A stretch of DNA of 64,000 nt from an uncultured virus (IMG/VR IMGVR_UViG_3300044612_002649) (Duplodnaviria; Heunggongvirae; Uroviricota; Caudoviricetes). Numbering within the stretch: position 1 is the first letter of the stretch; each line of letters begins with the position of its first letter. The stretch lies in the IMG/VR virus record IMGVR_UViG_3300044612_002649; one strand, 5' to 3'. Below the pieces are notes generated by a model. That model ran no database searches, was not told where the DNA came from, and was given only the letters and a program-made list of their open reading frames with translations. Positions 1,230-44,464 of this stretch are shown one piece after another. A program made the translations under genes and the position numbers.

Positions 1230-3671
1230 ATGAATACACAAGAAATTCTTGGCGCAACAACTAATGCGGTGTCTACCGTAAAATCTTTGAGTAATATTTC
1301 TTCTGCAACTTCATTATCCGGCATTGCAGAATCCATCCCTAATGCAATTGGTGATACTATAGATGCGATATCAAAAAATATATCAAAAGGTATAGATTCT
1401 ATATCTTCTGGATTTGAAAATATTTTATCATCGGTGGATTCTGGTGAAGAAGAATCAGATTTGGAATTACCACTGCCAAATGTATTGCATAATTATGCGA
1501 CATACAACTATATATTTGGATTATATTGTCTTGATGATGATAGTTATAATTATCCAGGAAGTTCATACATGGCTGGCAAGTTTCCACCTTTAATTTGTAA
1601 ATCAGCTGGTGCAGATCCTGATAACAGAATACAATTAGCAGATGATAAAAAATATGATTTTTTTATTGATGACGTGTTTATTGAATCTATTGCATCATTT
1701 ACACGGCAAGGTGGTAACACTAACCAGAATAATATGGGATTTACTGTTACTGAACCATACAGCATGGGTATGTTTATGCAAGCATTGCAAATTGCATCAT
1801 ACAACCAAGGCCGTAAAAATTGGCAAACAGCTGCATTTTTATTAACCATTGAATTTAGAGGTAATACAGAAACTGGTCAGATAACCAATATTCCAAATAC
1901 TAAAAAATTTATTACGTTTAAATTCCAAAATTGCCATATGAAAGTTACTGAAGCCGGTAGTATATACACTATTACCGGTTATGCATGTGCAGGTGAAGCA
2001 CTGAATGACAGTAATGTGAATTTTAAATCAGATACCGTAATCACTGGCAAGACTGTTCAAGAAATATTACAAAGTGGACCAAAAAGTTTGCAACAAGCTG
2101 TAAATGCTAGATACAAACAGTTGAAGGAAACTGGTGCTGTTAAAGTACAGGATGAGATATTAATATTATTTCCAAATAAAATATCGACAGAGGGTGCTGG
2201 TGCCACACTTGTGAAACAAGGTGATACTGAAAGTAAATCATCTGCTACACAAGATCCCACACAATTAAATGATGAAAAATTATTTAAAACACTCGGTATT
2301 TCAAGAAGCAGTACGAGTGCAACATTGATACAAAATGATGGTACTTGCAACGCATTAGGAAAGGCTAAACTTGGGTATGATGTTAATAGAGCTGGTAAAT
2401 CACCATTTCCTGATGAAAATGCGGTATGGGATGACACTAAAAAAATATGGAATAGATCGGATGTTTGTTCAGCTCCCGGGGTTACTGATTTTATATTTGC
2501 TCAAGGATCTGATATTATCAATGCAATCAACCAAGTATTACTTAAAAGTGAAATCGCAGTTTCTGCGTTGGATCCAAAACAACTATCACCTGAGGGATTT
2601 CGGCCATGGTGGAAAATTGATACACAAGTTTATTATATTAAATCAGATGAAAATTTTAAAACAACTGGAACTATTCCAAAATTGATAGTATATCGAGTGA
2701 TTCCGTATAAAGTGCATGCAAGTAAAATGTTACCTCCAAATGCAACTGCCCCTGGGTTGGATAAATTAAAAGATCAAATTGTTAAGGAATATAATTACAT
2801 TTATACTGGTAAAAATATTGATTTGATTAAGTTTGAGTTTGAAATATCGGCTGCATTTAATAATTCATATATGGCTGACAATTTTACAAAATCGGGAGAT
2901 GTAGTCACTGCCCAACAAACTAGTAGTGCTGAAACAGTTACACCAAATGAAGCAAAACAAGCTCAATCAAAAATACCTACTGGAAGTAGTAATGTACAAC
3001 CCGGTGCAGCTGTGACCACAACCAAGCACGATGCGGTGATTACTTCGTCTGATAATAAAGGCGGATCAGTTGGTGATACGCCAGCAATACGTGCAGCAAA
3101 ATTATTTCATGATGCTGTAACCACGCCAAATGAAATGCATACAATACATATTGACATATTAGGAGATCCGTACTATATTTCGAATAGTGGCACTGGGAAT
3201 TATACTGATACACAACTGAAATTTGTCAATATTACTAAAGATGGTAGTATTAATTATATGAATGGTGAATCACATATTGTAATTAATTTCAGGACACCGA
3301 CTGATATAAATCAACAAACTGGTTTGTATGATTTAACAAACACCAAGGTAGCTCAACAATTTAGTGGATTTTTTAGATTAACCACAATTAGAAGCGAATT
3401 TAAAAAAGGTGTTTTTACACAAACAATTCAGGCAGCTAGAGTTCAAGGACAAGACAATCCAGAACCATCAAATCCGGATTCATTATATAGTTCTGATAAA
3501 ACCCCAGATACTAATAAAGGACTAGGGATTAGTAATTTTCTTGGTGGTGAGTTCACTAAAAAACTTGATTCTATCACAGAAGATTTTACGTCAAAAATTC
3601 AATCGACGATAGATGGTACCGCGTCGGTAATTAATGAAGTGGTGCCAACAATAACAGGGCTAATAAAATAA
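1230..3671 (+). CDS. Baseplate hub/tail protein (gp27-like position)
   Basis: 813 aa between gp53-like and gp5-like genes; C-terminal I.ILGDP...FSG.F....I.S.F..G.FTQ typical of hub proteins. Confidence 0.55.
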   Translation: MNTQEILGATTNAVSTVKSLSNISSATSLSGIAESIPNAIGDTIDAISKNISKGIDSISSGFENILSSVDSGEEESDLELPLPNVLHNYATYNYIFGLYCLDDDSYNYPGSSYMAGKFPPLICKSAGADPDNRIQLADDKKYDFFIDDVFIESIASFTRQGGNTNQNNMGFTVTEPYSMGMFMQALQIASYNQGRKNWQTAAFLLTIEFRGNTETGQITNIPNTKKFITFKFQNCHMKVTEAGSIYTITGYACAGEALNDSNVNFKSDTVITGKTVQEILQSGPKSLQQAVNARYKQLKETGAVKVQDEILILFPNKISTEGAGATLVKQGDTESKSSATQDPTQLNDEKLFKTLGISRSSTSATLIQNDGTCNALGKAKLGYDVNRAGKSPFPDENAVWDDTKKIWNRSDVCSAPGVTDFIFAQGSDIINAINQVLLKSEIAVSALDPKQLSPEGFRPWWKIDTQVYYIKSDENFKTTGTIPKLIVYRVIPYKVHASKMLPPNATAPGLDKLKDQIVKEYNYIYTGKNIDLIKFEFEISAAFNNSYMADNFTKSGDVVTAQQTSSAETVTPNEAKQAQSKIPTGSSNVQPGAAVTTTKHDAVITSSDNKGGSVGDTPAIRAAKLFHDAVTTPNEMHTIHIDILGDPYYISNSGTGNYTDTQLKFVNITKDGSINYMNGESHIVINFRTPTDINQQTGLYDLTNTKVAQQFSGFFRLTTIRSEFKKGVFTQTIQAARVQGQDNPEPSNPDSLYSSDKTPDTNKGLGISNFLGGEFTKKLDSITEDFTSKIQSTIDGTASVINEVVPTITGLIK

Positions 3672-5092
3672 TGGCAGAAGAAAAGAATTCCGGTGTACAA
3701 AGTGCAGTACCATCACAACCGTGTCTTGCAAAAGTTGTTAGTCATTTAGATACAACATACATGGGATCACTTGAAGTAATGTTGTTGAGACCAGGAGCAG
3801 GCAACGATTCTGTAAGTTCCCAAGTTCAACAGGTGAAATATATGAGTCCTTTTTGGGGAAATACTTCAATCGATTCCGTCTGTAGCCAGAATGATTATAA
3901 TAATACGCAAAAAAGTTATGGTATGTGGATGGTTCCCCCGGATGTGGGATCCACTGTTATAGTTATATTCATAAATGGCGATGCAGCAAGAGGCTATTGG
4001 ATTGGATGTGTTCCAGATGAGAACATGAATTTCATGGTTCCTGGAATTGCTGCTACTGAAAATTCGGTGACTAGTGGAACAGCGGACGCGGTTGGTAGAA
4101 CAAGCCGACTACCGGTTGCTGAATATAATAAGTTGGAAAACAACCAAAATGGTGATGCTACTAGATTTAAAAAACCAGTACATCCATTTGCAGCAGCTTT
4201 GGAAGCACAAGGATTGCTATTAGATGATACCAGAGGAATAACTACCAGCAGTGCACGACGTGAAACACCGAGTATGGTATTTGGTATAAGCACACCAGGT
4301 CCATTTGATAAACGCCAAGGAGCGCAAGTTGGTCATCTAGGAAAATCTGATTGTGGTGTTAATAATGGACCCGTAAGTCATTTAGGCGGCACAACATTTG
4401 TGTTAGATGATGGGGATGATAAATTTTTGAGAAAAACATCAGCGAGTATTGGTCCACCAGAATATGTATCTGTTGAAAAGGGTGATACTGGTGGTGATGT
4501 GACGATTCCTCATAATGAATTATTCAGAATTAGAACCAGAACTGGGCATCAAATATTATTGCATAATTCTGAAGATTTAATTTATATAGGGAATAGTAAA
4601 GGTACAACGTGGATCGAATTGACCAGTAATGGTAAAATTGATATATTTGCAGAAGATAGTATTAGTATTCATACAAAGCAAGATTTTAATTTAACTGCTG
4701 ATAGAGATATCAATTTCAATGCTAAAAATATAAATTTAACGGCATCTGAAAATTTCAAAGTTACTGCTAGTAAAAATTTTGAAGTAGTGGCTGGTGTTGA
4801 TGGATTGATTACATTGGGTGGTAGTCAACATATAAAATCTGGTGGAAATTGTTTGATAACAGGCGCGGAAATTCATTTAAATGGTCCAGCTGCAGCAGCT
4901 GCAACGGTAGCACCTGTGCCTACTAGAATCCCCGATCATGAGCCTTGGATCGGACATGAAAATCTCGATCCAGCTATGTTTACCCCAGATAAAACGGTAG
5001 CAGTTGAGCCATCTCAATTAACAGAACCAACTCCACCGACTATGTATAAACAGTATACTGCTACTATGGATACATTTAATAAAGGATCATAA
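3671..5092 (+). CDS. Baseplate central spike, gp5/VgrG-like
   Basis: OB-fold motif PPDVGSTVIVIF..GD...GYWIG, beta-helix repeats and IHLNG end. Confidence 0.8.
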   Translation: MAEEKNSGVQSAVPSQPCLAKVVSHLDTTYMGSLEVMLLRPGAGNDSVSSQVQQVKYMSPFWGNTSIDSVCSQNDYNNTQKSYGMWMVPPDVGSTVIVIFINGDAARGYWIGCVPDENMNFMVPGIAATENSVTSGTADAVGRTSRLPVAEYNKLENNQNGDATRFKKPVHPFAAALEAQGLLLDDTRGITTSSARRETPSMVFGISTPGPFDKRQGAQVGHLGKSDCGVNNGPVSHLGGTTFVLDDGDDKFLRKTSASIGPPEYVSVEKGDTGGDVTIPHNELFRIRTRTGHQILLHNSEDLIYIGNSKGTTWIELTSNGKIDIFAEDSISIHTKQDFNLTADRDINFNAKNINLTASENFKVTASKNFEVVAGVDGLITLGGSQHIKSGGNCLITGAEIHLNGPAAAAATVAPVPTRIPDHEPWIGHENLDPAMFTPDKTVAVEPSQLTEPTPPTMYKQYTATMDTFNKGS

Positions 5093-5093
5093 A

Positions 5094-5525
5094 ATGAGTA
5101 ATTCATTATATACTAAACTTACTATACCGTCAAATAATCAACAAATTACATCACAGATGTATAGAGGATTTAGTACGGTGAGTCCAGACACTGAAAATTT
5201 TAAATTGTTTGATTTAGCATTAGTTAAACAAGACTTGTTAAATCATTTTTACACTCGTCAAGGTGAACGATTGATGAATCCAAAATTTGGAACAGTAATA
5301 TGGGATTTAATTTTTGAGCCGTTGACTGATGATACCAAGAATCTCATAATCCAAAATGTTAATGAAATTATAAATTATGATCCACGAATAGTTGCAAATG
5401 ATGTAGTAATCACACAATATGAAAGTGGTATACAAATAGAATGTGTCTTGACATATTTGCCATATAATATATCGGAAAAACTTAAATTACAATTTGATCA
5501 GACTAACGGGCTTTTTGTTCAATAA
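5094..5525 (+). CDS. Baseplate wedge protein gp25-like
   Basis: TRQGERLMNPKFG..IWDLIFEP...YDPRI signature. Confidence 0.9.
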   Translation: MSNSLYTKLTIPSNNQQITSQMYRGFSTVSPDTENFKLFDLALVKQDLLNHFYTRQGERLMNPKFGTVIWDLIFEPLTDDTKNLIIQNVNEIINYDPRIVANDVVITQYESGIQIECVLTYLPYNISEKLKLQFDQTNGLFVQ

Positions 5526-5537
5526 AGTGCGTAGATT

Positions 5538-5567
5538 ATCCTAATGAATAAATACAGCTATTAGGAT
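5538..5567 (+). promoter_or_regulatory. Late promoter (AATAAATA) inside an 8-bp hairpin whose 3' arm covers the AGGA SD
   Basis: atcctaat-gaataaatacagct-attaggat directly upstream of ATG 5573. Confidence 0.55.
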
Positions 5568-5572
5568 TAATT

Positions 5573-8500
5573 ATGAGTGCAACCGATAGAGAAAATAGAC
5601 TTCTAGTAGCTGAAGATTGGACAAAAATATATCAGTCATTTCGTAGTGCTGACTTTCAAAGTTATGATTTTGAAAATATCAGACGAACAATGATTAACTA
5701 TTTACGTCAAAATTACCCGGAAGATTTTAATGATTATATTGAAAGTTCTGAGTATTTGGCATTGATAGATCTTATAGCATTTTTTGGGCAAAATATTGCA
5801 TTCCGAGTTGATTTGAATGCTCGTGAAAACTTTTTAGAATTGGCAGAACGTAGAGATAGCGTACTACGATTAGCTAGAATGATTAGCTATAATGCAAAAA
5901 GAAATATTGCCGCAAAGGGGTTATTAAAATTTTCAACAGTTCAAACTACTGAGCGTGTTATTGATAGTAACGGTAGAAATCTATCAAACCAAGTCATTAC
6001 ATGGAATGATACAAGTAATCCTAATTGGTATGACCAGTTCATAAAAATCATGAATGCAGCAATGCCAGATGCACAACAATTCGGTAATCCATCTGACAGC
6101 GCAACAATTTATGGTATTGCTACTGAACAATATAGATTCCAAGCGGCTAATACTGATGTTCCAGTTTATTCATTCTCCAAAGTTATCTCTGGTAGATCAA
6201 TGAATTTTGAGATTACCAGTACTACTTTTTCTGGACAAACCTATATCTATGAAGAATCCCCCAAAGTAGGTAATAGATTAGCATGTGTATATCGGGACGA
6301 TGGCCAAGGTGCAGGAAGTGCTAATTCTGGTTTTTTCTTGAATTTTACACAAGGTTCTTTGAATACAGGTACTTTTAATATTTCACAACCGAGTACAAAC
6401 GAAGTTATTAATATTGATACCCAAGGGATCAATAATTCAGATGTGTGGTTATATTCATTAGATTTGTCTGGCGTTGAAAAAAGTGCATGGGTACAAGTTC
6501 CAAGTTTAACCGGTAATAATATCATATACAATAGTTTGAGTAAAAATATTAAAAATATTTATGGTGTGACTACACGGGCAAGTGATGCAATTAGTTTAAA
6601 TTTTAGTGATGGCACATTTGGCAATCTTCCACAAGGCCCATTTAGAGTATATTATAGAATTAGTAATGGATTATCGTATGTAATTAATACGCAAGATATA
6701 AAAAATGTTACGATTTCAATACCATATATTTCGTCAACTAATCAGTTTGAAACATTAACTGTGTCATTAAATTTGACAACCTCGGTAATGAGTTCATCAC
6801 CCTCTGAGACTAATGAAAGCATTAAAACAAATGCTCCTCAAAATTATTATACTCAGAATAGAATGATTACTGGCGAAGATTACAATATTAATCCATTAAC
6901 AGCGAATCATCAGATATTAAAAGTTAAATCAATTAATCGTACTTCAAGTGGTATTAGTCGATATTTTGATGTTGTTGATCCAACTAGCAAGTATAGTTCT
7001 ACTAGATTATTTTCTGATGATGGTATCATTTATTCAGAGTACTATTCTAATTCGGTAAATTTCTCATATAAAACAAGAATCGATATTCAAAATGCAATTT
7101 ACAATGTAATATTACCGATATTGAAAGATGACGGATTAAAAAATTATTATTATTCTAATTTTGTTAGTGGGGTATTAAATTCTGGAAAAACAATTACTTG
7201 GACTCAAAATTCTTCTGATATACAATCAAGTGTTGGTGTTTTTTCCGAATCAGTTGCATCGTTGAATATAACAACAGGCGCTAAAATAAAATTTGTCGCT
7301 CCTGTTGGATCATATTTTGATACAAATCAATCAAACAAATTAGTATCAGGATTTGCGATAACTCCTGGTTCTTCTTATTATTTGTGGGCAGATGTATCTA
7401 GTATTTCTGGTAATAATTATTCATTAAATACTATATTACCATCTACTGCTATAATTGATTCGGTAGTTCCAGAATGGTCAACTATTATAACAAGCACTGA
7501 TGTATTGACAGAAATGGTTGAATTAATATTATTAAACCAACCATTTGGTTTGCGATATGATGTCACCACTCAATCGTGGAAAGTTGTATTAAAATCTAAT
7601 TTAGACGTTATTAATCCGTTTAGTTTATATTCACAGGGCGATATCACCAACACAAATTCTGATGCTAGTTGGTTAATATTATTAACAACTAACAATAATG
7701 TTTATACCGTTACTAGCCGTGAAATGCGATATGTATTCGAGAGTGATAAACAATTACGATTCTTTTATGATGGGTCATCAACAATTTATGATAGCCAAAC
7801 ATCTAATGTGATTAATGATCTTGTTACAGTTTTGAGTTATAATACTAATCCAGTCGTAGTATCAACCTACGCATATGCTGCGTCAAATAGCAATACGATA
7901 GTAGTTAATAATGCTACTGGTATCACAATTGGTATGATTGTATCTGGGATTGGGATTGCTGATAATACAATTGTAATTGATGTTTCTACGTTAAATGGTG
8001 TTAATACAGTAACATTAAATAAAGTAACAATTGCAATTGTGAGTGAAACCGTTAATTTTAATAATATAGGATCATCGACATATAACAATGATTTGACATT
8101 TAAAATTATTGGATCATATGTTGGTGAAGATGGATATGTAGATACAAAAAAAGTATTAGTATCATTCTCCGATAAAATGGGACCAGATTTATTTAAACAG
8201 GTTGTTAATCCAATTCAGACTGATGCTAGTAAGTATATAGTGCAGTCTCGATACTCGATATCGTCTGGACAAGAGGATTACAAATACATAAGTAATTCTA
8301 ATGAAATAGTTAAAATCCTACCAACACAGCCTGCGTCTTTTACTGGATATACGGATAAACAGTATTTTTACTTTATTGATACAGCAGTTGTAAAACAATA
8401 TGATAAAACCACTGCTAAACTTACACCTAGTTTGGATTATAAAGTATATGTTGGAAGATCAGATATTAAATATCAATATACACATGCAGCGAAATACGAA

Positions 8501-40644: not shown

Positions 40645-43101
40645 TTAGAATCTAAAAAGAGCATTTGATGATGTCTGTTCATTGGTACTCATTAGATCCC
40701 ATTCTAATACACCGATCAAATTTGACACTTTTTTATCAATAATAACAGCTTCCATTGCTGAATGTTCAAATGGTAGTTCTTTAAACCACTGTGGTAATCT
40801 CAGTTCATCAACAGGGTAAGCAACACTGGTAAATCCTAATGGATTATCTTTCAGTTTACATACAATTACTTTAGCACCATCAGTAATATTCATTGAATAT
40901 TTGTCAGAAAATACCGATTTTAAAGTATTCCAATTCAGACTAGCTCGAACATGACCAGGCATATTTGCTTTACCAGTGTTATCTTCTAATGCTCGATATT
41001 TGGTGATATTATTAGCTCGTTTCGGGCTACCTTTTTCCCAGCCTGGTCTTGCTTTGAATAAAGATCTAAATTCTGATATTCGATTCAAAACTTCTTTTTC
41101 AGGAGAACCAGTTAATACCATTTCTAATATTTCACTCAAGAAATTTTGCATGAATTCAGGGGTATCTGATCGTTTCAAATCTAATCCCATTGCTTTTATC
41201 TCACCAGGTTTGCCATCTTTATCTTTGCGTTTCCCTTCTTTATCGTACACTAATACCGCATATCGTTTTTTTGTAATGAACAATGCTTTACTACCAACAA
41301 TTTCTCGTCCAGCTTTAATAACTTCACCTCTAATTGGTGGGCAATGAAATGCTGATAACATGAATGGAGAGAATGTTTTGTTTACGTCTTCACCTATCTG
41401 ATCGTATAATGCAGATACATCTTCTTTCTCCCATGGGATATTTCCAGCTTCTATTTCTTTTTTGAAGATTGGATATGCAGAAAAATAAACCGAGTCTGTA
41501 TCACCATAAATAACAGCCTTGCCAATATGATTGTATTCACCTGTTACAATTTGATTAACAGTTCCAGCCATATGTTTAGCAATTTGTCTACCAGTCAATG
41601 TTACCGATTGACCAATACGTTTATCGTAAAATCTACAACCGGCATTTAAAATAGCACCGTATAAACTGTTCAAATTAATTTTTTTAACTAATTGTCTTTT
41701 ATCCCAGTATTCTTCCTGTTCTTTATCACCTGCTGCAATAGCTTCCTTGAGTTTCTTTTGCATATCTTTACGTTCAGCATACCATCGTTTTAATAATCCT
41801 GGAATGATTGCTTCATTTTCATATGTAAAAATAGTACCATTTGCACTTAACATCCATGGCTGTTTTGATTCAAAGATCATTTGATAAATGCGATCAGCGC
41901 TCGCAACATCAGACCCACCATCTTCCCAGTCAATAGTAATCTGCTTATCGTATTCTTTATTCATAACAGCAGTGTATTCTAATGTGCCAAATACACCTTC
42001 CCAAGATGCGGTAATTGATCGACCGTTTGCCATCTCAGATTTAAGAAATGCATCGGTCATATCAGGACGAAGCTGACCAACAATAGTTTCTGGGCCCATA
42101 TTGAGAGCACGAATTACTGATGGATATAGTGAATTGATGTCTAATGAGCCAACCCAATCATGCAATCCTTCTTTTGGGTTTGCTACATAAGCACCAGCTG
42201 CCATGTTTTCTGATGTGCTATCAGATTTGAGTCTAGTTGGTACTTGAAACCCGCGTTGATGCGCTTCATTAATAATAGCTTGCTCGGTTACTGCTACTGC
42301 ACCCATAGTGGTTTGTAGTAATACCGTATTTTCATGTGCTAATGTATTAGCTAGATCTAAAAACTTTAATTTTTTATCTAGCTTTTCCAACAGCATAGTA
42401 TCTTGTCTGTTATATTCAATAAATGTTCTAAAATCATTATTATATAACTGATCAAGTGTTCCCTCATATGCTGTTTTATGCTCACCTAACTCATATTCAG
42501 CAATTGCATCTAGGCGATAGCTATGACGCTCTTCGTAAGTATATTTGCGATAAAGTTCCAAACTATCCATATGAACTCTACCCACAAAATCATAGGTTGA
42601 TGCTGTCTTACCATATCTTTCATATTCACGTTTTTTCGGGAATTGATTGAATAGACAGAAACGTCTAGTATCATCTTTGCTTAATACTTTGGTAACCCGA
42701 TTAACGGTGTATGGAATATCAAAACCTTCTGAATTCCAGCCACTTAATACATCGGCATCTTTTATTAAATCCAAAAATGTATCTAATAGTTCTGCTTCAG
42801 TATTGAATAATATAGTGTTTGGAAATTCTTTGACAATTTCGGTTGCTTCCTCCATTGACAAGGTTTTTGGAGGGATTGCAAGACATACCAGAGTGTTTAA
42901 CCATTGTAAGTGAACTGCAATCGCAGTAATTGGCATAAATGCATCATCTGGTGATGCATATCCTGGTCCAGGTTTTAAATAGCTACAATCTGCAATATTA
43001 ACCCATTTTTTTAATGTTTCATCGTAAACTTCATACTCATCTTTATTTTGTATGTTACTTAATTCAAATACTGATATTTCTTTTTCTTCCAATATTCCCA
43101 T
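40645..43101 (-). CDS. Family B DNA polymerase, large C-terminal subunit of a split gene
   Basis: ExoII WNSEGFD, ExoIII YNRQD, DINSLYPS, KINLNSLYG, YGDTDS, KKRY; no ExoI DIE; own GAGG SD. Confidence 0.92.
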   Translation of the reverse strand: MGILEEKEISVFELSNIQNKDEYEVYDETLKKWVNIADCSYLKPGPGYASPDDAFMPITAIAVHLQWLNTLVCLAIPPKTLSMEEATEIVKEFPNTILFNTEAELLDTFLDLIKDADVLSGWNSEGFDIPYTVNRVTKVLSKDDTRRFCLFNQFPKKREYERYGKTASTYDFVGRVHMDSLELYRKYTYEERHSYRLDAIAEYELGEHKTAYEGTLDQLYNNDFRTFIEYNRQDTMLLEKLDKKLKFLDLANTLAHENTVLLQTTMGAVAVTEQAIINEAHQRGFQVPTRLKSDSTSENMAAGAYVANPKEGLHDWVGSLDINSLYPSVIRALNMGPETIVGQLRPDMTDAFLKSEMANGRSITASWEGVFGTLEYTAVMNKEYDKQITIDWEDGGSDVASADRIYQMIFESKQPWMLSANGTIFTYENEAIIPGLLKRWYAERKDMQKKLKEAIAAGDKEQEEYWDKRQLVKKINLNSLYGAILNAGCRFYDKRIGQSVTLTGRQIAKHMAGTVNQIVTGEYNHIGKAVIYGDTDSVYFSAYPIFKKEIEAGNIPWEKEDVSALYDQIGEDVNKTFSPFMLSAFHCPPIRGEVIKAGREIVGSKALFITKKRYAVLVYDKEGKRKDKDGKPGEIKAMGLDLKRSDTPEFMQNFLSEILEMVLTGSPEKEVLNRISEFRSLFKARPGWEKGSPKRANNITKYRALEDNTGKANMPGHVRASLNWNTLKSVFSDKYSMNITDGAKVIVCKLKDNPLGFTSVAYPVDELRLPQWFKELPFEHSAMEAVIIDKKVSNLIGVLEWDLMSTNEQTSSNALFRF

Positions 43102-43804
43102 CGTTCCCTCGATATTTTGAAATATATGTTACACAAGCACCATTTTCTAATAATCCATTATAATGTTGTAATCTATACTTTATTTGTCTATAAGTATATC
43201 CAGTTATAGACAATACATCATCATATGATGAAAATTCAATTGTTTCATTGTTGACTGTAGTCATCAAAAATGTAGAACTTTTCCCCTTTTTGATAGAATC
43301 ACCACGTTTTTTATGATCACATTTTTGAACTGAATTTTTCATTCGTAAATCCATGTCTTCTTTAGACATTAATGATAATGTAGATTTTAATGTATTCCTT
43401 ACCTTATCATAATCGTAGTTATAAACTCCGGATTTATGATTTTGCAAAAACTTTTTTTTACGGTCTATGCATTTATTAGGATTATTTTCAGAAAATTTGA
43501 TTCTAGCCGCTGAATATGAATGACTAGTAACCCGATATTCATTGTATCCTTTTCTAGTTTTTGACATCCACCATAATGCATATATCATTTTTTTATAAAA
43601 TATAGGTGTATCTTTATATATTTTAACCAATAATAAATGGCATATAAAATGTTCACGGGTGGTTAACAATACTAAATTTTCTTTACTATTATCACCACCA
43701 CAACTACGTGGTATTATATGATGCTTTTCTAACAATATATTTTTAGTTCTATTTTTTAATTGTGCGGATTTAATTATATCGTTGTATATTTTTAAATAAT
43801 TCAT
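43064..43804 (-). mobile_element. Free-standing HNH homing endonuclease (Mob-like) inserted in polB
   Basis: EKHHIIPRSCGGDNSKENLVLLTTREHFICH; AAGGAG SD; late promoter GATAAATA at 43823-43830. Confidence 0.9.
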
Positions 43805-43853
43805 AGTATTCTCCTTTAGAATTATTTATCATTATTACTTCGATATCAAACAA

Positions 43854-44243
43854 TCATTGTTTTTTTCTGATTTTAACCATGTGCTGGGATGATACTGCAA
43901 ATGCTTGCATATCAACCTCAATATCAAACCATGCTACATTAAGCTTTGGTGCATCTTGGTTTATGTAATGTTCACTGAGACAAACAAATATTGGGTTTAG
44001 ATCGGCTTCAAAAAGTTTTTTGTTACCATTGACAGCTACTTCTTTACGAAAATCTCGTGTATTTTTACATACAACTTTCGTTAATGGTTTGCCATATATT
44101 GATCGGTATTTTCCTTTAGTATCACCATAATAAAATGTAGGTTTTACTGGGAAATCTCGGTATTCTCTACCACCTGCTTTATTGCGTTCAACGACTTTTA
44201 CAATATCAGCAGTTTTATCAAAAAATGCATCTACATAGCTCAT
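43854..44243 (-). CDS. Family B DNA polymerase, small N-terminal subunit (N-terminal domain + ExoI)
   Basis: MSYVDA...FEADLNP...LNVAWFDIEVD followed by an 18-aa tail. Confidence 0.88.
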   Translation of the reverse strand: MSYVDAFFDKTADIVKVVERNKAGGREYRDFPVKPTFYYGDTKGKYRSIYGKPLTKVVCKNTRDFRKEVAVNGNKKLFEADLNPIFVCLSEHYINQDAPKLNVAWFDIEVDMQAFAVSSQHMVKIRKKQ

Positions 44244-44401
44244 TCTGAATCCCCCATTAAAGAGGTTTCGTCTTCACCACGTTGTTTTGCTACATCTTCT
44301 GATAGCATTTCTTCAATTTTGCATGAACATCTAGCTTCACAATCGTGAAGTGACGGACATGTTTCACATACTTCAAATTCGAAGTCTTTGTTAATTTCCA
44401 T
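44240..44401 (-). CDS. Small Cys-rich protein
   Basis: Start revised to MEINKD (GGAG SD); CxxC..CxxxCxC; ATGA overlap with the polB N-terminal gene. Confidence 0.6.
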   Translation of the reverse strand: MEINKDFEFEVCETCPSLHDCEARCSCKIEEMLSEDVAKQRGEDETSLMGDSE

Positions 44402-44415
44402 ATTATATTCTCCAT

Positions 44416-44464
44416 TTATGATTTCCGGCTCATAAGCACCCATCTATGCGGTTTATGGCCCAGC
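44416..44464 (-). promoter_or_regulatory. Twin hairpins with GCCNNAAA loops, possible translational operator
   Basis: gc(t)gg-GCCATAAA-ccgc and ttatga-GCCGGAAA-tcataa just upstream of the SD. Confidence 0.4.

Follow-up and report, generated by a model that had tools for sequence, protein, structure and literature searches.

Organization of the polB locus

The DNA considered here, called the window in the following, is a stretch of 64,000 nucleotides (nt) from an uncultured freshwater giant phage (IMG/VR record IMGVR_UViG_3300044612_002649; Caudoviricetes). Its gene for a family B DNA polymerase (PolB) is laid out in pieces. Three open reading frames (ORFs) follow one another in tandem, all on the minus strand and each in a different frame: the first encodes an N-terminal part of the polymerase (N-fragment), the last the remainder (C-fragment), and a free-standing gene for a putative HNH homing endonuclease is placed between them (Table 1). 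All motifs that characterize the family, i.e. the exonuclease motifs ExoI to ExoIII and the polymerase motifs A to C, are present, ExoI on the N-fragment and the others on the C-fragment. The N-fragment terminates with ...LNVAWFDIEVD, which includes ExoI, followed by a basic tail, MQAFAVSSQHMVKIRKKQ, and the C-fragment begins with an acidic leader that precedes the polymerase core. A preliminary description, made from the sequence alone, had given the same order of an ORF of 129 amino acids (aa) with ExoI and a tail, a 246-aa HNH gene, and an 818-aa ORF with a 46-aa leader and all remaining motifs, each ORF having a Shine-Dalgarno sequence or a coupled start; coordinates, Pfam matches, and translations bear out this layout.

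The C-fragment matches PF00136 (E 1.9e-40) and PF03104 (E 4.7e-15) in Pfam. No Pfam family was matched by the N-fragment, which is assigned by its matches to DNA polymerase families in PHROG (phrog_262, E 5e-11). The product of the middle ORF matches PF01844 with 22.8 bits (cut-off 21.4) and phrog_655, annotated as 'homing endonuclease', with an E value of 2.5e-37, and it resembles annotated free-standing homing endonucleases of T4-like phages. The GC content across this gene is 0.23-0.29, compared to 0.33-0.37 in its flanks.

Each ORF has its own translation signals. The ATG of the N-fragment overlaps the stop codon of the upstream ORF (ATGA) and is preceded by GGGGGA. That of the HNH gene, whose frame differs from those of both polB pieces, is preceded by AAAGGAGAA and has its own AGGAG, and the ATG of the C-fragment, preceded by GAGGGAA, is located 38 nt inside the HNH ORF.

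Table 1. Features of the split polB locus, with positions in the window
Feature	Position	Strand	Remarks
polB N-fragment gene, 129 aa + stop	43854..44243	-	Initial part of the N-terminal domain; first strand of the exonuclease, with ExoI
ExoI catalytic motif D-I-E, residues 107-109	43917..43925	-	Checked by translation
Basic C-terminal tail of the N-fragment, 18 aa, net charge +4, pI 11.3	43857..43910	-	Predicted strand 1 of the mini-domain
49-nt spacer, N-fragment stop to HNH start	43805..43853	-	Near-copy of ExoI-coding DNA and HNH Shine-Dalgarno sequence
Free-standing HNH homing endonuclease gene, 246 aa, T4 Mob-like	43064..43804	-	PF01844, phrog_655
C-fragment ORF, 818 aa	40645..43101	-	Leader and core
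Acidic N-terminal leader of the C-fragment, 46 aa, net charge -5, pI 4.4	42964..43101	-	Mini-domain, predicted strands 2-4 and short helix
C-fragment core, residues 47-818 + stop	40645..42963	-	Rest of the exonuclease domain (ExoII, ExoIII), palm, fingers, thumb, motifs A-C
ExoII, GWNSEGFDIPY	42709..42741	-	C-fragment, by translation
ExoIII, YNRQD	42400..42414	-	C-fragment, by translation
Motif A, DINSLYPS	42118..42141	-	C-fragment, by translation
Motif B	41656..41685	-	C-fragment, by translation
Motif C, YGDTDS	41491..41508	-	C-fragment, by translation
947-nt mobile cassette (tail, spacer, HNH gene, leader)	42964..43910	-	Cassette-free relatives have 15 nt (FDPER) instead

Empty, contiguous, and split alleles in related phages

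The extent of the insertion is defined by comparison with an unsplit relative. The 888-aa PolB of locus L012 matches both halves, with residues 1-111 aligned to positions 44243..43911 (74% identity) and residues 114-888 to positions 42972..40648 (81% identity). Since the protein aligns in these two blocks, 947 nt of the window (43910..42964) take the place of 15 nt in the unsplit gene. Judged by these alignments, the split is not due to chance.

Among 113 related IMG/VR loci, 107 read through the site without an insertion, with complete ORFs of 886-898 aa; most of them read FDIEVD-FDPER-GYASPDD. One locus (L055) carries the insertion in frame and encodes 948 aa, and five are split, four of them identical to the window and the fifth (L011) 79% identical in the N-fragment. 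A degenerate DNA pattern composed of the ExoI codons and the start of the tail retrieved 19 IMG/VR loci, of which 16 were read, the other three representing the window's own sequence. Five of these 16 encode a contiguous PolB of 946-950 aa, in which a tail-like and a leader-like part are joined by a linker of 4-7 aa. The remaining 11 are split, and their HNH ORF is located exactly in this linker (between strands 1 and 2 of the domain described below).

The split layout is found in many diverged giant-phage contigs. A search of a large protein collection with the N-fragment yielded 100 proteins, comprising 35 complete N-fragments, with the rest being mostly contig-end pieces of unsplit genes. 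The complete N-fragments are 128-142 aa long, show 46-79% identity to that of the window, and reside on contigs of up to 338 kb, the window's own aside; the protein cluster of the N-fragment includes contigs of up to 367 kb. Residues D107, I108, and E109 of ExoI are invariant in all 35. Cultured relatives (PA5oct, Phosso, Atu_ph07, and RaK2-like phages) are distant. Between 93 and 100% of the sampled words of the stretch occur in 14 DNA runs from lakes and other freshwater, nine of which are possible sources of this DNA.

The tail and the leader as parts of one mini-domain

The preliminary description had listed a tail and a leader on the polymerase pieces, an account that has to be corrected. 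The two peptides are parts of one conserved inserted mini-domain of ~60 aa, not filler, and both belong to the mobile cassette. A corresponding insertion exists in Stenotrophomonas phage Moby, whose T4-type PolB harbors ~60 additional aa directly after DIEV and was matched by tblastn into the leader. The Moby insertion is collinear with the leader and ends with the same G(Y/F) junction. Local alignment of both yields a score of 62, compared to a mean of 21 (standard deviation 4.2) for shuffled sequences, and none of 20,000 shuffles reached 62. The leader is likewise homologous to the in-frame insertions of L128, L130, and L143. No significant similarity was detected between the tail and the Moby insertion. 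Coverage of the leader in tblastn matches to the T4-like phages STML-198, KMB17, Merlin, and pf16 proved to be over-extension of the alignments, as these polymerases have no insertion after DIE.

The fold of the mini-domain was approached with an AlphaFold2 model of the contiguous L128 protein (residues 1-480, alignment of 23 rows, mean pLDDT 69). Here, the insert (residues 121-170) is predicted with a pLDDT of 78-86. It comprises strand 1 (residues 122-127, LVKIRK, corresponding to MVKIRK in the tail), strand 2 (134-138) followed by a short helix, strand 3 (151-155), and strand 4 (160-163), and the same elements appear when the insert is modelled alone (mean pLDDT 75). Which of these strands pair with each other can be presumed only. 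Because strand 1 originates from the tail and all other elements from the leader, the HNH gene would interrupt the loop between strands 1 and 2. The model of the contiguous relative matches gp43 of phage RB69 in Foldseek with an E value of 1e-18.

A profile of the mini-domain, run against 1.84 billion proteins, gave 23 matches at E<=0.001, of which 17 were scanned with Pfam and six of 29-89 aa were left out. Seven of the scanned proteins contain PolB domains, eight belong to unrelated families, and two show no family; the eight unrelated matches cover 5-10 short stretches only and are taken as compositional noise, so that no second host protein for the mini-domain was found among the 17. Against the sequences of the PDB, the profile produced matches at chance level only (e.g. 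CLASP2 and EVH1). Structural searches yielded nothing significant either. The best Z score in the VIA wide structure search was 3.8, and eight of the 50 entries listed are inteins with Z scores of 2.3-3.8, below the stated noise level of the tool. The best E value in Foldseek was 1.6, with inteins in the top three rows (E 1.6-1.8), again below the stated noise level. Several of the intein structures align from their first residues. A decayed intein, of which a stub is left, is thus one possible origin of the mini-domain, although sequence profiles lend it no support; a common small beta arrangement is equally possible.

Exchange of the cassette between polymerase alleles

Tail, HNH gene, and leader travel together as a cassette of ~1 kb, to judge from the pattern of sequence identities. 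Compared to locus L136, the window is 91% identical in the HNH gene, 93% in the leader, and 94% in the tail, and 70 and 82% identical in the N and C cores of the polymerase, respectively. The corresponding values for L138, which lies on the same contig as L011, are 79% for the HNH gene, 67% for the leader, 77% for the N core, and 85% for the C core. In bins of 100 nt, the window is nearer to L136 than to L138 at positions ~43943..42944 (gene position ~301 to 1300), a stretch that begins with the ExoI codons and closes with the leader. Elsewhere it is not nearer to L136, with the exception of two isolated downstream bins, and the boundaries of the mosaic coincide with the ends of the cassette.

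The phylogeny of the C core (52 rows; quick run of IQ-TREE with LG+G4) points in the same direction, with the reservation that gene conversion near the site can itself distort it. Alleles with the insertion fall into two separately supported groups of polB (SH-aLRT 98 and 97). Each group contains split and contiguous forms in mixture together with one empty allele, and many empty lineages lie between the groups. Six changes of state are required on this tree, compared to 9.6 in shuffles. The contiguous forms may have arisen by loss of the HNH gene or may be older than its arrival; either order is compatible with the data. The locus thus displays both the presence/absence polymorphism and the lateral movement by which homing endonucleases are recognized.

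Selection and transcription

Ratios of non-synonymous to synonymous substitution rates (dN/dS), calculated by the Nei-Gojobori method between the window and L011, are 0.127 for the N core, 0.028 for the tail (five synonymous changes and one non-synonymous change), 0.17 for the HNH gene, 0.27-0.37 for the leader, with 0.27 in the part that does not overlap the HNH gene, and 0.08 for the C core. These values and the bias towards synonymous changes therefore indicate that tail and leader are read as protein in the polB frames and that the HNH gene is alive.

The tail follows the pattern MQ(P/A)(F/Y)AVSSQxMV(K/R)(I/V)RKK in 30 of the 35 complete N-fragments, and in the other five a variant, W(K/R)P(A/S)EVDExxKV(K/R)IR(K/N)K. 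Over all 35, it is conserved at least as well as the core. The 30 tails of the main type have a net charge of +4 to +6 and a pI of ~11.3. Leaders carry the opposite charge, with -4 to -6 in six of seven variants and -1 in the remaining one (L131).

At the RNA level, a metatranscriptome contig from one sample runs unbroken from the N-fragment through the tail, the stop codon, and the spacer into the HNH gene. No skipping, spliced, or cassette-free joint was detected in two RNA and two DNA runs, parts of the stretch being without cover in the RNA libraries. One contig from an RNA library (depth ~4) differs from the window by C>G at 43925 and a deletion of one nt at 43926, both in the codon for the ExoI Asp; these differences are probably an error of low-depth assembly.

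A probable two-subunit polymerase and its proposed assembly

The reading favored here, to which we give a probability of about 75%, is that the locus encodes a true split PolB of two subunits that assemble non-covalently, and that the split was made by the mobile HNH cassette. The preliminary description had proposed a polymerase gene in pieces, cut by a free-standing HNH gene, with an exonuclease site that has to be assembled from two polypeptides. This proposal is supported by the lack of any intron or intein signal, the three different frames, the purifying selection, and the many diverged contigs with the same layout. Its placing of the break in the bare exonuclease fold has to be corrected, since the gene is interrupted in the first loop of the mini-domain that follows ExoI.

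The three ORFs would probably be transcribed together, and each would be translated from its own start. The N-fragment, consisting of part of the N-terminal domain, the ExoI strand, and strand 1 in the tail, is proposed to dock onto the C-fragment via the native interfaces of PolB, an interlocking that is suggested by the RB69-like fold of the modelled contiguous relative. Docking may also involve completion of the mini-domain by strand complementation and by opposite charges, the basic tail strand joining the acidic sheet of the leader. Tail and leader would then probably hold the pieces together as a clasp, which is the least secure part of the proposal. The proofreading site would form from ExoI (D107 and E109) on one chain and ExoII and ExoIII on the other. 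Judging from its family and the mosaic pattern, the HNH enzyme would cleave polB alleles that lack the cassette in co-infecting relatives, and repair would then copy the whole cassette, including the clasp. Copying of the clasp along with the cassette would explain how an insertion in an essential gene is tolerated.

Several points weigh against this proposal. Binding of the halves to each other is a prediction, and so are the physical assembly and the role of the clasp. The clasp function may be overstated, because the comparable tails of the split ribonucleotide reductase of phage Aeh1 are needed for later dimerization and not for binding of the halves. Conservation of the tail could result in part from recent spread of the cassette. 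The leader alone gave no match at E<=1 in tblastn against phages, and the case for its homology to the Moby insertion is consequently made by the site-anchored alignment together with the shuffle test. Evidence at the RNA level is weak, consisting of low-depth contigs from one sample with possible carry-over of DNA, and a rare spliced form could escape it. Lastly, a second intact polB may exist elsewhere in a genome of ~367 kb, the search having covered 64 kb and partial records of 28-58 kb.

Alternative explanations

The best surviving alternative accepts a truly split polymerase and assumes that the native interfaces suffice for assembly, with tail and leader being neutral passengers or serving the expression signals of the HNH gene. 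In an RB69-like fold, the N-fragment would be expected to interlock with its partner anyway, via the N-terminal domain and the exonuclease sheet, and the halves of the Aeh1 enzyme bind without tails. Moreover, the first 13 codons of the leader overlap the 3' end of the HNH gene; this overlap and the 27 identical nt at the C-fragment start (see below) imply that some of the conservation acts at the DNA or RNA level. Even so, this explanation is considered unlikely. The amino acids of the tail are kept in 30 of the 35 diverged N-fragments while synonymous sites change, and the leader is under constraint (dN/dS 0.27) also where it does not overlap. The region is modelled confidently as one domain with strand 1 supplied by the tail, most variants keep the opposite charges, and contiguous alleles keep the domain in the absence of the HNH gene, be it already lost or not yet acquired.

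Alternatively, the gene might be damaged, with an intact polB elsewhere or the host polymerase doing the work, or with a C-fragment that polymerizes without proofreading and an N-fragment that is dispensable. All polymerase motifs are indeed located on the C-fragment, and the search for another gene was limited to the window and the partial records. In the 64-kb window and three partial records (28-58 kb), no further polB came to light; an intact copy was among the findings that, according to the preliminary description, would speak against a split enzyme. Purifying selection acts on the N core and more strongly on the C core, the split layout persists on many long contigs down to 46% identity of the N-fragment, and D107 and E109 of ExoI are unchanged throughout. 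A decaying gene is thus very unlikely.

Tail and leader might also be the halves of a naturally split intein that ligates the PolB pieces by trans-splicing. This idea draws on the polB genes of the relatives PA5oct and MIJ3, which contain a split intein together with an HNH gene, on intein-like blocks after YGDTDS in L131, on the inteins among the best structural neighbors of the mini-domain (VIA, Foldseek), and on the length of the tail, whose 18 aa recall the short N-terminal pieces of atypically split inteins. It is nevertheless highly improbable. Tail and leader add up to 64 aa, whereas even the smallest inteins are about twice as long (~130 aa or more). In Pfam, neither the two fragments nor the insert matched any Hint or intein family, even at E<=10, no intein occurs among the PDB sequence matches at E<=10, and all structural scores are below the noise levels stated for the tools. 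The tail starts with Met or Trp, and the insertion ends with ...PGP followed by Gly; hence, there is no Cys, Ser, or Thr nucleophile and no terminal Asn. The contiguous forms, too, keep the insertion with the same non-catalytic junctions.

Next to no weight is given to a group I (or II) intron with an HNH ORF, whose splicing would restore a continuous polB message. Group I introns that carry an HNH gene are familiar from DNA polymerase genes of phages, and an insertion exactly at a conserved motif is typical of introns. A review also mentions intron-associated elements of gene 43 (PMC2988022). However, Rfam with permissive filters gave no match at E<=1 in 42500-44400 and, at six related diverged loci, two sub-threshold matches only, both to unrelated families; the non-coding part of the insertion amounts to 49 nt, and changes in tail and leader are mostly synonymous in the polB frames; in Moby and the contiguous alleles, the same ~60 codons belong to one continuous, translated polB frame; and the RNA-library contig is unspliced across the 5' junction, with no joints observed.

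Two recoding mechanisms were considered and dismissed. Stop-codon read-through or another genetic code would lead from the TGA of the N-fragment to a TAA after 27 codons, and the three ORFs occupy three frames. Ribosomal bypass between two FDIEV-coding copies (see below) would land in a frame that ends after 27 codons; in addition, relatives do not conserve the frame of the second copy, and selection acts on the tail.

Comparison with known split genes

Friedrich et al. are said to have described, in 2007, the arrangement nrdA-a / mobE / nrdA-b of Aeromonas phage Aeh1 as 'genes in pieces', and Dassa et al. reportedly described 'fractured genes' in 2009. The closest precedent for the present locus is provided by the tails of Aeh1 NrdA. 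NrdA-a carries a basic and NrdA-b an acidic tail, both inherited with mobE and essential for activity (Crona et al., 2011, PMC3045599). These tails are needed for dimerization, not for the halves to bind; the authors predicted such tails in other fragmented genes and speculated about a decayed intein as their origin in Aeh1 (PMC3045599). In both systems, the gene of an essential enzyme with a role in replication is broken beside active-site residues by a free-standing HNH gene of the Mob type, no RNA or protein splicing is involved as far as can be judged, the active site is, or would be, composite, and a basic tail on the upstream and an acidic one on the downstream piece are inherited with the endonuclease gene. 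The features that define the Aeh1 type, i.e. contiguous relatives, a split by an endonuclease gene, and oppositely charged tails at the break, are all found here. In contrast to Aeh1, the enzyme is PolB instead of a ribonucleotide reductase, and the tails are halves of a conserved mini-domain, predicted to fold, that other phages possess in unsplit form. The present arrangement is also widespread and demonstrably exchanged as a unit, while the description of Aeh1 concerned an isolated case; the function of the tails is a prediction here.

Split PolB genes have been reported as well. In Aeromonas phages 25 and 44RR, gp43 is divided into 43A and 43B (Petrov et al., 2010, via PMC2988022), and the two products co-purify and show polymerase activity, according to the review (PMC2988022). 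These phages share with the window a PolB gene in two cistrons, and in phage 25 a free-standing homing endonuclease gene is placed between them. They differ in the split site, which the preliminary description puts in the fingers region for some T4-like phages, in a seg-like endonuclease with an untranslated intercistronic spacer, and in that the review's passages on them mention no shared mini-domain. Pseudomonas phages MIJ3 and PA5oct harbor a 'fractured' polB with a split intein and an HNH gene (PMC6892783). In the PA5oct record (L003, MK797984.1), positions 3159-7264 contain two annotated DNA polymerase coding sequences with a 'Hef-like homing endonuclease' between them, a layout as published for MIJ3, and the PolB of the window is related to that of PA5oct. 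Common to these phages and the window is a PolB of a giant phage that is interrupted by a free-standing endonuclease gene, with extra peptide derived from the element on both flanks. In contrast, their elements display recognizable split-intein blocks, splice in trans, and cut further downstream in the gene, whereas the present locus contains no intein motifs and its pieces would have to stay separate.

The mini-domain itself has its counterpart in the genus Menderavirus (Stenotrophomonas phages of the Moby/Mendera group), with an insertion of ~60 aa directly after ExoI and the same G(Y/F) junction. Unlike that of the window, the Menderavirus insertion is contiguous, with no endonuclease gene inside. 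The polymerase of this group is a T4-type gp43 with ~34% identity over 130 aligned residues (tblastn, the first 134 residues of the C-fragment as query).

The searched full-text literature, from which subscription-only papers were outside the scope, holds no description of a PolB split at ExoI, nor of the mini-domain or the Menderavirus insertion. In view of the Aeh1 NrdA tails, the split is less unusual than the preliminary description had judged it. Split PolB genes with endonuclease genes are already known. What distinguishes the present case is the site directly after ExoI and the lack of a splicing element. Furthermore, the added peptides are halves of a domain that is predicted to fold and that occurs unsplit both within this clade and in a T4-type polymerase that is only distantly related, and clasp and endonuclease gene, by sequence comparison, travel together.

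Expression signals and further polB arrangements

Some sequence elements within the cassette may have regulatory roles. Where the HNH gene and the C-fragment overlap (43064-43130), the window and L011 share a run of 27 nt around the C-fragment start (TATTTCAAAATATCGAGGGAACGATGG) without any difference, within DNA that is ~82% identical, which may reflect translational coupling or a regulatory RNA or DNA element. Directly after the stop codon of the N-fragment, a near-copy of the ExoI-coding DNA (TTGTTTGATATCGAAGTA, 43836..43853, minus strand) would read LFDIEV. It is kept at the DNA level in six of seven cassette variants, with stops breaking its frame in several, and overlaps the promoter-like hexamers TTGATA-17-AATAAT; a scan for promoters and terminators gave the same counts as in shuffles. 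The near-copy may have been left over from the target site, or it may act as an operator resembling the homing site, a mimicry known from I-TevI. Upstream of the N-fragment and coupled to its start lies an ORF for a Cys-rich protein of 67 aa (..CETCPSLHDCEARCSC..; window 44240-44443, minus strand).

Other ways of dividing polB occur in related phages. In L131 (1-3717, minus strand), and also in L139 and L140, a second break divides the C-fragment immediately behind YGDTDS. The intein-like sequence that follows (..TVTQDHSVMIE.., LLEVKPADIQETDILI) is similar to the published MIJ3 intein blocks (PMC6892783), and in L131 it is followed by a large ORF of >574 aa. These three loci represent a polB in three pieces that uses both the putative clasp and a split intein, L131 thus carrying both split types in one gene. 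The PolB of L039 (5001-6617; 302-kb contig, 47% identical) passes the ExoI site without an insertion and stops after 538 aa; it may be split at another site. In the T4-like Salmonella phage STML-198 (L040, 1-448), an annotated homing endonuclease gene is situated immediately upstream of polB.

Implications for mobile endonucleases and phage polymerases

As for the origin of the cassette, it is conceivable, although doubtful, that it is the stub of a decayed, atypically split intein. In this case, ~60 residues of one Hint-like lobe would have lost splicing and been retained as a non-covalent clasp, allowing the HNH gene to colonize the ExoI codons. Loss of the HNH gene would then leave the stub behind as a permanent new domain of PolB, which would explain the contiguous alleles of giant phages and the T4-like polymerases of Menderavirus. 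If this holds true, endonuclease traffic would both fragment proteins and seed domain insertions across phage families.

The codons favored by homing endonucleases are the most conserved ones of essential genes, where an insertion should be lethal. The polB locus represents a way out that requires neither RNA nor protein splicing, as the mobile element brings along the halves of a small domain that probably re-forms and keeps the divided enzyme together. This idea was earlier proposed for one phage ribonucleotide reductase and is encountered here in a replicative polymerase, at the catalytic motif of proofreading. Related phages supply three natural states, namely the empty site, the insertion in one piece, and the insertion split by an endonuclease gene, and the question is therefore directly testable. 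The tail and the leader also constitute a candidate for a small, natural, non-covalent module for protein complementation.

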